From a virus (lineage: Duplodnaviria; Heunggongvirae; Uroviricota; Caudoviricetes): a DNA stretch of 14,562 nucleotides. The notes beneath the pieces were generated by a model. It made no database searches, had not been told where the DNA came from, and was given only the letters and a program-made list of their open reading frames with translations. Location of the stretch: the IMG/VR virus record IMGVR_UViG_2703718773_000013. The stretch is one strand, 5' to 3'. Below are positions 11,486-14,562 of this stretch, in pieces. Within the stretch, counting starts at the first letter, position 1, and each line of letters begins with the position of its first letter. Made by a program: the position numbers and the translations under genes.

Positions 11486-12301
11486 TCAATGAACGGTATC
11501 GAGCAGCTTTAACAGCTCAGGGAATCGGGATTCGAAGAAATGCGGCTGCGTCTCGCGCGGATTTGCAGGACTGGTGATGTTCTTGCCGAACATGCAGCCT
11601 TTCGCGGTCAGCGACCAGAATTTTTTGATGTTGTTAATCGCGGTACGACTGTATCGTTCGCGTTGTTCAACGATCCCCAGCTTCGCCATCTGGTGATATG
11701 CCTGATTAGCCGTCAGGCGGATACCATACTGCTTCAGCAGTGCACTCAGCGACAGCGTAGGGCGGCTTGAACCATCTGGCGCATCAGCAGGTGCATCAAT
11801 GGCATAGATCGGCATAAGTTCAGGAAGACCAGCTACCTTTGATAATTTCTGGTATGCACCAAGTTTCGAGGAGTTTGACAGATTTAGAGTCTTTGCTGCT
11901 GATTCAAGCAGAATGACCCCGGATTTAATTTTGTCGGATGTGGTTTCTTCTGGTGATGAATTATGAAGCGCATCAAAAGTACGTATCACTTTTAAGCTGA
12001 ATGCCGGGCTGATCCACATTGCATATGCATAGACCAGCTCTTTACAGACATACGTCCCACCATTGCGCCCCTGAATGGTGATGACAGGAATACTACGGGA
12101 ATCTCCCGTAGTTTCTTCTTCCAATAATTCCACAAGAGCCTTCGTTTCAGGACGACGCATAAACTCGTGAACTTCCAGCGAACGGGAGGAGCGATTCTCA
12201 CCAGCGGCAAGAAGAGCAGCTTTCTGAAGGTCGTTAAGACAGTAGTTAGATTCGAAGTACTGGCGCACAGAAACGCCATCAATTACAAGCAACTGATTCA
12301 T
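11486..12301 (-). CDS. KilA-N domain protein (putative antirepressor-type regulator)
   Basis: ATG at 12301 with SD ggag 7 nt upstream (track ORF begins at GTG 12313). N-terminal region LLVIDGVSVRQ...IQGRNGGTYVCKELVYAYAMWISPAFSLKVIRTF matches the KilA-N (APSES-like) signature GRNGGTW...WLSP.F..WV. Confidence 0.75.
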   Translation of the reverse strand: MNQLLVIDGVSVRQYFESNYCLNDLQKAALLAAGENRSSRSLEVHEFMRRPETKALVELLEEETTGDSRSIPVITIQGRNGGTYVCKELVYAYAMWISPAFSLKVIRTFDALHNSSPEETTSDKIKSGVILLESAAKTLNLSNSSKLGAYQKLSKVAGLPELMPIYAIDAPADAPDGSSRPTLSLSALLKQYGIRLTANQAYHQMAKLGIVEQRERYSRTAINNIKKFWSLTAKGCMFGKNITSPANPRETQPHFFESRFPELLKLLDTVH

Positions 12302-12398
12302 TGGTTTCTCCACAAATTTTTATCCACGAGCGGGACTGCACTCCCTTTTCGTTGATGCCGGATGAACTTACTGCGATTTTTAATAGTTATCAAGGATA

Positions 12399-12418
12399 CA
12401 CTGTTCATAAATACAGTA
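12399..12418. promoter_or_regulatory. LexA (SOS) box, CTGT-N8-ACAG, about 100 bp upstream of the KilA-N gene
   Basis: cACTGTtcataaatACAGTa has CTGT at 12401-12404 and ACAG at 12413-12416 with an AT-rich 8-nt spacer. It is the only canonical CTGT-N8-ACAG match I found in a manual scan of the window. Possible -35 (tgaaca) and -10 (tattaa) elements overlap it on the minus strand. Confidence 0.65.
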
Positions 12419-12463
12419 TCTTTAACGAGGTAATACCCAAATTTAGGGTGTTGCTCAATTCCG

Positions 12464-12859
12464 TTACCGAGTTGCTAATTTGCAACTCGCTTTTTCGTAC
12501 TTACTGATAGTGATCTCGACCTTCCCCTCCGGGATAACCGGTCCCCACTCCACCAGCATTCTTTTCACCTGACTGTCGTCTTCCCACACACCCGCGTGGG
12601 TCAGGGCGTCAAACAGCGCCTTGTTATAGTTGTCCAGATCGCGGATCCGGTTATCCGGAGGAAACAACACGATCTCCACTGAAGCAGGTGCCGACGTTGG
12701 TTTCGGCAGACGACGTAACTGCTCAACTATTGCTGCACACGCCGCGCTCTGGAATTTTCGCCCCGCCGCGCTTATCAGGCTCTTACCAGCAAACGCCCCT
12801 TTGTTGGGGTGTCGCCAGTACGTGTTCACGCTGGGCGGAAAAGGCAGGAGCAGCTTCAT
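12464..12859 (-). CDS. rusA: RusA-family Holliday junction resolvase
   Basis: 131 aa MKLLLPFPPSVNTYWRHPNKG...VEIVLFPPDNRIRDLDNYNKALFDALTHAGVWEDDSQV has the RusA hallmarks (PPS.N.Y, RRDLDN, DAL). Start overlaps the stop of the upstream methyltransferase gene. Confidence 0.88.
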   Translation of the reverse strand: MKLLLPFPPSVNTYWRHPNKGAFAGKSLISAAGRKFQSAACAAIVEQLRRLPKPTSAPASVEIVLFPPDNRIRDLDNYNKALFDALTHAGVWEDDSQVKRMLVEWGPVIPEGKVEITISKYEKASCKLATR

Positions 12860-13596
12860 ACTTTCAGGCCTCTCTCATGTAACCAATGGGCTGCACGCAG
12901 CCTAGCGTTTTCCTCACCGGCAAGCAGTGAGCGGATAATCCCGACCGCCTCGCTGTCGTCGTCCTTCACCACGGTATGAAGCGTGATCCCCCGGGCCACA
13001 CCACGCTTTATCGTGATGACGCCTTTTTTCTCCAGTGCGCGAAGATGCTCCACCGCTGCATTCACTGAACGGTATCCCAGCATGGTTGCCACCTCCTGAT
13101 TGGTTGGCGGGAAGCCACGTTCTTTCTGATAAGAAATCAGCATATCCAGCACCTGCAAACGCCCGCGAATAAAAGCAATATGGTCTGCATCTTCCGGCCA
13201 CCACACTTCGCTGGTGGCAGCTTTGATCAGGAAAACATAGCGCCCGCCTTTATCACGCATAGCACTGGCATGTTTCATGATGTAACGCATGCCGGTGATG
13301 TATTGCCCCTCATGCTGACTGGCGCGGCTGTACGGGGGATTGCCAAAGGCAGCACCTTTAAGCTCCGCAAGACGTTCTGACCAGTCATGCGCCAGCGCGT
13401 TGTCTTCCGCAGTGTAATAAGCGGCACATTTGGCGTTATCACCATCAGTAAACAGATCCAGAACAAACGGGCCAAACAGGGTGTTAATTCCCCAGAAAAT
13501 GTTGTCCGGCGTGCGCCACTGATCGCCCACTTCCTTCAGTTCATGGGCTGGTTTGTTCCGCAGCTCCACCAGCGCCTGGCAATATTTATTACTCAT
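12856..13596 (-). CDS. Phage Dam-type N6-adenine DNA methyltransferase fused to a C-terminal LexA-like winged-helix DNA-binding domain
   Basis: ATG at 13596 with SD ggggg 5 nt upstream (track ORF starts at GTG 13629). The N-terminal ~155 aa carry the catalytic NPPY motif (AAFGNPPYSRAS) and resemble prophage Dam methylases. The C-terminal QKERGFPPTNQEVATMLGYRSVNAAVEHLRALEKKGVITIKRGVARGITL aligns with the E. coli LexA N-terminal domain at roughly 60% identity by eye. No S24 peptidase domain follows. Confidence 0.75.
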   Translation of the reverse strand: MSNKYCQALVELRNKPAHELKEVGDQWRTPDNIFWGINTLFGPFVLDLFTDGDNAKCAAYYTAEDNALAHDWSERLAELKGAAFGNPPYSRASQHEGQYITGMRYIMKHASAMRDKGGRYVFLIKAATSEVWWPEDADHIAFIRGRLQVLDMLISYQKERGFPPTNQEVATMLGYRSVNAAVEHLRALEKKGVITIKRGVARGITLHTVVKDDDSEAVGIIRSLLAGEENARLRAAHWLHERGLKV

Positions 13597-14084
13597 TAAG
13601 CCCCCACGTAATTCCCTGACAGATACCACTCTTCACCCGATGCAGCGCGCTTGCTGCTTTTCCGTAAGCACCGCTCACGATGCGCCAGAAAATTGTTTCG
13701 TTCTGGCTGGGAGTGGCTTTCACGGAATGCCGCCATCCACACCGTTGCAGCTCGACGGAATAAGCCCCTGGACTCCAGTTCTTCAGCCTGGCGGGTCAGG
13801 CACAAAATCACCCGGGGGTCGTTAGTGCCGACATAGAAATTGCGCACAGGTCTGGTTTCACGAACAGATTGTGGTTCCGGCTCCTGCGCTCTCTCAGTCA
13901 GGCGCGGGAAATGTCTGCGTGTATCTCCTTCACAACGGTGAGCCACACGCCCACTCTGACGTAACTTGCTTGCTGACTGCAGAACGCGCTGCCGTGAGTA
14001 ACCAGCAAAAGCATCTGCAATGTCTCCGGAAGTACAGCCCGGATGGGCTTCAATGAATTTCTGAACGTCATTCAAAAGACTCAT
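13596..14084 (-). CDS. Putative regulator with N-terminal wHTH-like region and C-terminal PerC-like domain (YfdN-like)
   Basis: ATG at 14084 with SD aggggg 6 nt upstream. C-terminus LESRGLFRRAATVWMAAF...HRERCL...LSGNYVGA resembles the PerC/Pch family signature (GLWRRAA..W ... YVG) as recalled. Stop overlaps the methyltransferase start (ATGA). Confidence 0.6.
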   Translation of the reverse strand: MSLLNDVQKFIEAHPGCTSGDIADAFAGYSRQRVLQSASKLRQSGRVAHRCEGDTRRHFPRLTERAQEPEPQSVRETRPVRNFYVGTNDPRVILCLTRQAEELESRGLFRRAATVWMAAFRESHSQPERNNFLAHRERCLRKSSKRAASGEEWYLSGNYVGA

Positions 14085-14086
14085 GA

Positions 14087-14562
14087 TCACCCCCTGAATC
14101 CTGCCGGGATCTGGCTGTAGTCCACGTTGTCGTAACTGGCTTTGAAGTACGGGTCTTCACGTTTTTCTGTGTGCGTGCTGACGGACGGCGATAAGCGCAG
14201 GGAAAGCTCATCCCATTTTTCCCGCAACTTCGACGGGCTGAGCACGTTACGGCACCAGAACGGATCGCGGCTGACGCGGCTGTACATCTCGCAGATTTGT
14301 TTGTGAGTACGACCATCCTGCACACACATCAGGCGAATTTCGTTTGCCCATGCTGTCCAGTTCGGTTCTTTGGGACGAACCACCTCGCCGTCACATTCGG
14401 CGGCCTGCTCGTACAGGGCAATGATTTTTTTCCAGAGCCACTGTGCGCAGGTCAAATCATCCTGCGTTCCCCACTGGCGCTTTTTAGGGCTGAATACAAC
14501 CGCATCAGGATGGCGAGTTAAAAAATCCTGTTCAGCCGTCTGCGTGTCCGGTTGCGAAGCGT
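14087..14562 (-). CDS. Replication-region phage protein, C-terminal part; 5' end lies outside the window
   Basis: The reading frame is open from the window edge (14562) to the stop at 14087; the track lists only its in-window TTG at 14455. Sequence ...LTCAQWLWKKIIALYEQAAECDGEVVRPKEPNWTAWANEIRLMCVQDGRTHKQICEMYSR... Position is upstream of the nin-like region. Function not recognised with certainty. Confidence 0.5.
   Translation of the reverse strand, partial: ASQPDTQTAEQDFLTRHPDAVVFSPKKRQWGTQDDLTCAQWLWKKIIALYEQAAECDGEVVRPKEPNWTAWANEIRLMCVQDGRTHKQICEMYSRVSRDPFWCRNVLSPSKLREKWDELSLRLSPSVSTHTEKREDPYFKASYDNVDYSQIPAGFRG

Follow-up and report, generated by a model that had tools for sequence, protein, structure and literature searches.

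The phage N-6-adenine-methyltransferase (PF05869/TIGR01712; WP_000066917.1, 217 aa) and the prophage LexA family protein (WP_000210181.1, 108 aa, PF01726 only, phrog_362) are the described proteins closest to the locus studied here. In the Qin-like lambdoid prophage to which the locus belongs, the usual order of the nin region is PerC/YfdN, N6-adenine methyltransferase (217 aa), LexA-family protein (108 aa), RusA and KilA-N. M.EcoVT2Dam, a relative of the Dam enzymes of lambdoid prophages, was reported to have GATC as its target (PMC6602927). Phages are already known to encode proteins in which a LexA DNA-binding domain stands without the peptidase; one of them, gp6 of the Bacillus tectivirus GIL01, was experimentally shown to activate a late promoter (PMC6182141). 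The known likeness of gp6 to the E. coli 108-aa protein is confined to the shared domain; gp6 is an activator, whereas the E. coli protein is a predicted DNA binder. No study of the latter was found in the literature. A methyltransferase gene that adjoins a small winged-helix gene, as is the case here, has been described in a Stx phage, where the two genes are co-transcribed and the prophage MT-A70 methyltransferase M.EcoPA8orf6770P needs the adjacent winged-helix subunit PNB-2 in order to methylate 16S rRNA (PMC10810198).

In the window, that is, the whole stretch of 14,562 bp that was analysed, parts of a methyltransferase and of a LexA-family protein are found in one open reading frame (ORF) of 246 aa (Table 1). 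The ORF shares with WP_000066917.1 residues 1–146, the NPPY motif, the start codon and the site after PerC/YfdN, but it lacks residues 147–217 and runs on into the product of another gene. With WP_000210181.1 it has in common residues 10–108 and the place before RusA with a 4-nt overlap, while the start codon, the ribosome-binding region and residues 1–9 of that protein are missing. The winged helix-turn-helix and a largely conserved recognition helix are shared with E. coli LexA (1LEA, 3JSO, 1JHH); unlike LexA, the LexA-like part is without the S24 peptidase, the cleavage site and the LexA dimerisation domain, and has just two short helices past the wing. The two-subunit methyltransferase of the Koudelka laboratory was considered as the same system and rejected, being an analogy only: M.EcoPA8orf6770P is a DPPW enzyme of another family (MT-A70), has its partner gene upstream and is a subunit of its own, and the Dam gene here is dispensable beside the LexA-like gene.

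From comparison of the sequences, the ORF is very probably a deletion chimera of two neighbouring prophage genes that is private to this strain or assembly, and not a conserved or selected architecture. On balance, it is best read as a private allele with a 236-bp deletion, an assembly error being the less likely alternative. Both merged genes were already known and annotated, and the chimera is no new family.

Table 1. Features of the chimeric ORF and its surroundings, with positions in the window
Feature	Position	Strand	Remarks
Chimeric ORF, 246 aa, ATG start	12856..13596	-	Dam aa 1-146 + junction Leu147 + LexA-like aa 10-108
Dam-derived part, codons 1-146	13159..13596	-	100% identity to first 438 nt of the 654-nt PV16-126 methyltransferase gene (WP_000066917.1)
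NPPY catalytic motif	13330..13341 (aa 86-89)	-	Sequence and translation
Deletion junction	13157..13158	.	AA (+ strand) / TT (coding strand), a clean match to neither flank; 236 bp missing versus all relatives
LexA-like-derived part, codons 10-108 + stop	12856..13156	-	100% identity to 3' 301 nt of the 327-nt PV16-126 LexA-family gene (WP_000210181.1)
LexA-type winged helix-turn-helix	12988..13155 (chimera aa 148-203)	-	PF01726 positions 10-65; recognition helix ~13027-13065
Two predicted C-terminal helices of the LexA-like protein	12874..12963 (native aa 74-87, 93-103)	-	Structure model; not S24 peptidase
Lost invariant methyltransferase residues			I147 G148 F149 L151 P152 W154 F155 P157 K158 K161 Q162 V163 P164 G166 A167 F168 F169 A170 G171 G182 L193
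PerC/YfdN-family gene, directly upstream	13596..14090	-	Stop overlaps chimera ATG by 1 nt (TAATG)
RusA resolvase gene	12464..12859	-	Start overlaps chimera stop by 4 nt, as in intact relatives
SOS-box-like palindrome CTGTTCATAAATACAG	12401..12416	.	Perfect CTGT-N8-ACAG in the 160-nt RusA/KilA-N intergenic region
KilA-N-domain gene	11486-12301	-	

Domain content of the chimeric ORF

Searches with the ORF, which can also be read in a GTG-extended form up to 13629, returned the phage Dam family and the LexA DNA-binding domain, as had been expected in an earlier sequence-only reading of this DNA. In the first half (aa 18–151), PF05869 (Dam) of Pfam is matched at an E-value of 1.9e-38 with 132 bits against a cut-off of 28.1, over profile positions 3–125 of 169, and TIGR01712 of NCBIfam over positions 1–122 of 165 (194 bits, cut-off 97.05). 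The second half (aa 148–203) matches PF01726 (LexA_DNA_bind) at an E-value of 1.8e-14 with 53.7 bits against a cut-off of 23.7; the match runs over profile positions 10–65 of 65, positions 1–9 being missing. According to PHROGs, aa 1–148 correspond to phrog_111 (methyltransferase) and aa 147–246 to phrog_362, a 'transcriptional repressor' family of 106 aa, of which positions 9–106 are matched at an E-value of 7.7e-53. The LexA-like part is 97% identical to P0121 and aligns to residues 8–69 of the N-terminal domain of E. coli LexA (1LEA, 3JSO, 1JHH; E ~1e-12). A match to Peptidase_S24 (PF00717) was not found in the chimera with Pfam, the ORF stopping 43 aa past the wing, and the lexA model of NCBIfam (TIGR00498) gave 56 bits, which is below its cut-off of 110.95. 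Both domain matches are cut exactly at the point where the two parts meet, and this was the first sign of a break-and-join.

The domain content that had been proposed from the letters of the DNA was confirmed in these searches. This applies to the prophage Dam-type N-terminus with its NPPY motif (PF05869, TIGR01712 and the motif at aa 86–89), to the LexA-type winged helix at the C-terminus (PF01726, the alignment to LexA and the structural superposition of the native homologue), to the missing S24 peptidase, and to the missing C-terminus of the methyltransferase, the PF05869 match of the chimera ending at position 125 of 169. The junction between the domains had been placed at 13110–13140; its actual position is 13156–13159.

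The intact methyltransferase matches PF05869 over positions 3–167 of 169, compared with 3–125 in the chimera. The latter is without about 26% of the domain (positions 126–169), and with it the invariant IGFxLPxWFxPK...GAFFAG block; of the 71 residues that were lost, 21 are invariant in an alignment of homologues with identities down to 77%. The TIGR01712 model and the PADLOC models PDLC03263 and PDLC03726 also reach well beyond the break, and the PADLOC match to the chimera covers positions 1–148 of 217; the matches obtained with the PADLOC defence library were generic methyltransferase matches only. Because domain coverage and conserved residues were lost, the truncated enzyme is expected to be inactive, and probably is. 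An AlphaFold model of the intact 217-aa methyltransferase, made from an 18-sequence alignment, had a mean pLDDT of 32.6, and a profile search against PDB sequences for a solved relative of the Dam family gave chance matches only.

A model of the native 108-aa LexA-like protein (pLDDT 78.7) showed helices at residues 6–22, 28–35, 40–52, 74–87 and 93–103 and strands at residues 56–58 and 66–68. It could be superposed on the N-terminal domain of LexA with an rmsd of 1.0–1.2 Å at about 50% identity (match to 1LEA and 3JSO). The recognition helix, SVNAAVEHLRAL, lies outside the deletion and is identical to that of LexA, SPNAAEEHLKAL, at 9 of 12 positions. In the model, the residues 1–9 that were lost make up the N-terminal stretch, which is disordered, and roughly a single turn of helix 1; the LexA-like moiety of the chimera would keep its winged helix save for this turn, together with the C-terminal helices. 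The start codon and the ribosome-binding region of the LexA-like gene were lost in the deletion, so that it is not a free-standing gene, and from the sequence its product would no longer be made except as the C-terminal portion of the chimera. If stable, the chimera could at most retain the DNA binding predicted for the native protein, and it gains nothing that would plausibly make it a targeted methyltransferase.

Parent genes and the deletion junction

The 1.7-kb segment 12400–14100 was matched at 97–99.9% identity in 2,696 of 5,426 complete E. coli genomes, and 1,612 of these 2,696 cover at least 80% of the segment. All 30 of the matches listed consist of two pieces over 1,937 bp, versus 1,701 bp in the window, and all 30 are annotated with two genes, a 'phage N-6-adenine-methyltransferase' and a 'LexA family transcriptional regulator/protein'. 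The same two-gene annotation is found in the phages mEp460, SfII and 1720a-02 and in Stx2-converting phages; dozens of phages carry the locus. In strain Z1322HEC0001 and in O103:H2 PV16-126, the products are the 217-aa methyltransferase WP_000066917.1 and the 108-aa LexA-family protein WP_000210181.1, and the two intact genes overlap by 4 nt and lie between the PerC/YfdN gene and RusA. The whole window is collinear with E. coli O103:H2 PV16-126, the only differences being 12 substitutions and one gap of 236 bp.

The missing 236 bp comprise 71 codons at the end of the methyltransferase gene and, from the LexA-like gene, the ribosome-binding site, the start codon and the first 9 codons. A deletion of this length would have joined the two overlapping genes and cut off the end of the methyltransferase. 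Since 236 mod 3 is 2 and the frames of the two genes are likewise offset by 2, what is left of them forms one continuous ORF of 246 aa, in which both portions, on either side of Leu147, are identical to the separately encoded proteins. The sequence-only reading had named an indel splitting the ORF into two genes as an observation that would refute it, and this is essentially what comparison with near-identical prophages brought to light.

The junction itself (13156–13159) can be read in two ways, either as a 236-bp deletion with a T>A change or as a 235-bp deletion with a 1-nt deletion. The extra 1-nt change is exactly what restores the frame, and it could hint at selection for read-through; the prior chance of an in-frame outcome is 1 in 3. 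Only two features are still unexplained by the deletion reading, the in-frame result and the odd additional base change. A slipped-strand deletion between direct repeats was rejected as the origin of the junction, the microhomology there being at most 1 nt. A variant parental allele behind the junction was likewise rejected, the standard flanking codons being present in all 83 Dam copies and all 125 LexA-like copies examined.

Some further observations were made on the surroundings. Ten of the 12 substitutions relative to PV16-126 are located at 372–624, within 250 bp of the portal and head-tail-joining genes, and the remaining 14 kb hold two; judged from the sequence, the cluster has the look of a small patch of recombination. 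Between PerC/YfdN and the LexA-like gene, Dam is an insert that some loci have and others lack (loci L003–L009 and 37 of the IMG/VR loci L010–L129), and the LexA-like gene has PerC upstream and RusA downstream regardless of Dam. Many single ORFs of 379–382 aa in the protein database contain both PF06069 (PerC) and PF05869 (Dam) (P0020–P0032, P0038–P0046), two of them, P0028 and P0030, being found on 12–28 contigs. Evidently, several genomes have PerC/YfdN and Dam in a single ORF.

Search for the same fusion and possible explanations

A 50-nt probe centred on the junction, built so that a match cannot be seeded from one half only, gave no match in 5,426 complete E. coli genomes or in 50,697 phage records. 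A 36-nt junction string likewise had no exact match in 185,579 GTDB representative genomes, JGI metagenomes and IMG/VR; in a control, the intact breakpoint sequence was present in at least 120 IMG/VR contigs. The exact chimera protein, with either start, was absent from a collection of 15 billion proteins and from a gene-position index. None of 120 viral contigs among the matches listed has the two domains in one reading frame, and about 70 of these 120 carry a full-length Dam followed by a full-length LexA-like protein. An exhaustive HMMER search of 1.84 billion cluster representatives revealed no diverged two-domain Dam-LexA family, the matches covering residues 1–148 or 146–246 of the chimera. 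Other Dam::LexA-like fusions do exist in the protein database (P0001–P0005, P0007–P0009, P0058, P0242), in clusters of one or two sequences each that were found on one to three contigs. They do not share a breakpoint: the breaks include a frameshift that links the two complete proteins, a deletion of 98 bp at a microhomology of 9 nt and a deletion of 362 bp, and several breaks fall inside the winged helix itself. The intact proteins form clusters of up to 3,007 members (Dam) and 2,527 members (LexA-like). The earlier statement that no described family has a Dam-LexA architecture holds, there being neither a recurring junction nor a two-domain family. The idea of a new functional architecture was not supported: by comparison with near-identical prophages the ORF results from a 236-bp deletion that merges two annotated genes, and its junction is unique in the collections searched.

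An artefact of assembly or sequencing would mean that the true genome has two normal genes and that the gap arose, for example, from collapse among near-identical copies of lambdoid prophages. This was judged unlikely. The absence of the junction from all other collections searched would agree with it, as would the lack of real microhomology and the adjacent base change at the junction. Related genomes hold up to four copies of the module, including four places in PV16-126, which makes assembly hard, and the many odd chimeras of both genes in clusters of one or two sequences, among them P0254 with reversed order, suggest assembly noise at the locus. However, mis-assemblies usually break at repeats and seldom make a junction inside unique coding sequence, the remaining window is collinear with its nearest relative PV16-126, and in-frame deletions of independent origin affect this pair of genes in finished chromosomes too, e.g., CP068680.1. 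That the fusion is ancestral, the two-gene arrangement elsewhere having arisen by insertion, has next to no probability; nothing beyond logical possibility speaks for it, and the missing 236 bp encode the conserved positions 126–169 of PF05869 and 1–9 of PF01726, parts that are present in homologues down to about 50–60% identity.

A functional, selected fusion could be a methyltransferase tethered to SOS-type operators, an uncleavable LexA mimic to which a domain has been added, or a Rosetta-stone sign that Dam normally works in a complex with the LexA-like protein. In its favour, the two parts are in frame, the winged helix-turn-helix is nearly intact with a recognition helix that agrees with LexA's as given above, a perfect SOS box is found about 440 bp downstream, Dam::LexA-like fusions recur in the databases, and the phage MT-A70 methyltransferase that needs its adjacent winged-helix subunit offers a precedent (PMC10810198). 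Even so, selection of the fusion is very improbable. The methyltransferase domain is about 26% short and its invariant residues are gone, the allele is unique, and the other fusions, in clusters of one or two sequences, are joined at other points, the winged helix-turn-helix being cut short in several of them. The precedent concerns an enzyme of another family (DPPW MT-A70), with the partner gene upstream (PMC10810198). Of the 120 viral contigs with the LexA-like gene among the matches listed, 37 are without Dam and have PerC immediately before the LexA-like gene. Dam is also missing beside two diverged homologues, P0202 of Citrobacter (63% identity) and P0178 of E. coli (77%), whose loci run in the order PerC, LexA-like, RusA, KilA-N, DUF968 and Q. 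As Dam is missing beside the LexA-like gene in so many loci, a functional link is unlikely, and the two proteins are probably not functionally linked. Among the matches listed, an SOS box is present within 1.2 kb downstream of the LexA-like gene in just 9 of 108 informative viral loci. The truncation of the methyltransferase domain and the rarity with which box and LexA-like gene co-occur both speak against a methyltransferase targeted to SOS boxes.

A slim chance may be granted to the view that either the chimera is stably expressed and, through the winged helix and C-terminal helices borne by its 146-aa methyltransferase remnant, binds SOS-type boxes without being cleavable, or the recurrent fusions are a Rosetta-stone sign of a partnership of Dam and the LexA-like protein, by analogy with the MT-A70/PNB-2 holoenzyme of Stx phages. 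The private deletion remains the preferred reading, and it carries a caution: a striking two-domain ORF in a prophage may be a private deletion between overlapping neighbours, and comparison with near-identical loci quickly settles such cases.

The SOS box and the native LexA-like protein

The palindrome CTGTTCATAAATACAG is the sole CTGT-N8-ACAG in the window, where chance alone would give about 0.16; 27 of 200 shuffles contained at least one. It lies about 440–450 bp downstream of the chimeric ORF and about 85–100 nt upstream of the KilA-N gene. The box is found at the same place in loci L001, L002, L007 and L008, the RusA/KilA-N intergenic region being too similar between the compared loci to be informative. 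On account of its position and its rare co-occurrence with the LexA-like gene, it was assigned to the KilA-N module and appears not to be a dedicated target of the LexA-like protein; the action of that protein on the box, which had been suggested for this locus, was not supported in view of the 9 of 108 loci mentioned above. Most simply, the box would be part of a host-LexA-controlled promoter of a putative antirepressor-like gene, a kind of promoter that has been described (PMC3121763). A sigma-70 promoter scan of 12250–13700 returned no site. By eye, a candidate -35 (TTGAGC) and a candidate -10 (TATTAC) were noticed just upstream of the box (~12417–12470, minus strand). The KilA-N protein has a weak match to the PADLOC candidate defence family PDC-S22 (E 7.5e-10, 56 residues).

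The uncleavable LexA mimic that the sequence-only reading had considered for the ORF does not belong to the fusion, yet it is plausible for the annotated 108-aa prophage protein, whose predicted domain content would make it an uncleavable LexA-type binder. The interest that remains lies not in the fusion but in this common enterobacterial prophage protein, with its LexA domain without the peptidase and a recognition helix near to that of LexA. The two helices past the wing (native aa 74–103) are conserved in homologues of Escherichia, Citrobacter, Salmonella and Hafnia (EENARxRA..WLHERG); a role of these modelled helices in dimerisation is only a guess. The search of cluster representatives also returned a protein of 141 aa (P0360), unrelated to the window, in which two LexA-type DNA-binding domains are arranged in tandem without the peptidase, and which represents a different, possibly real LexA-domain architecture.
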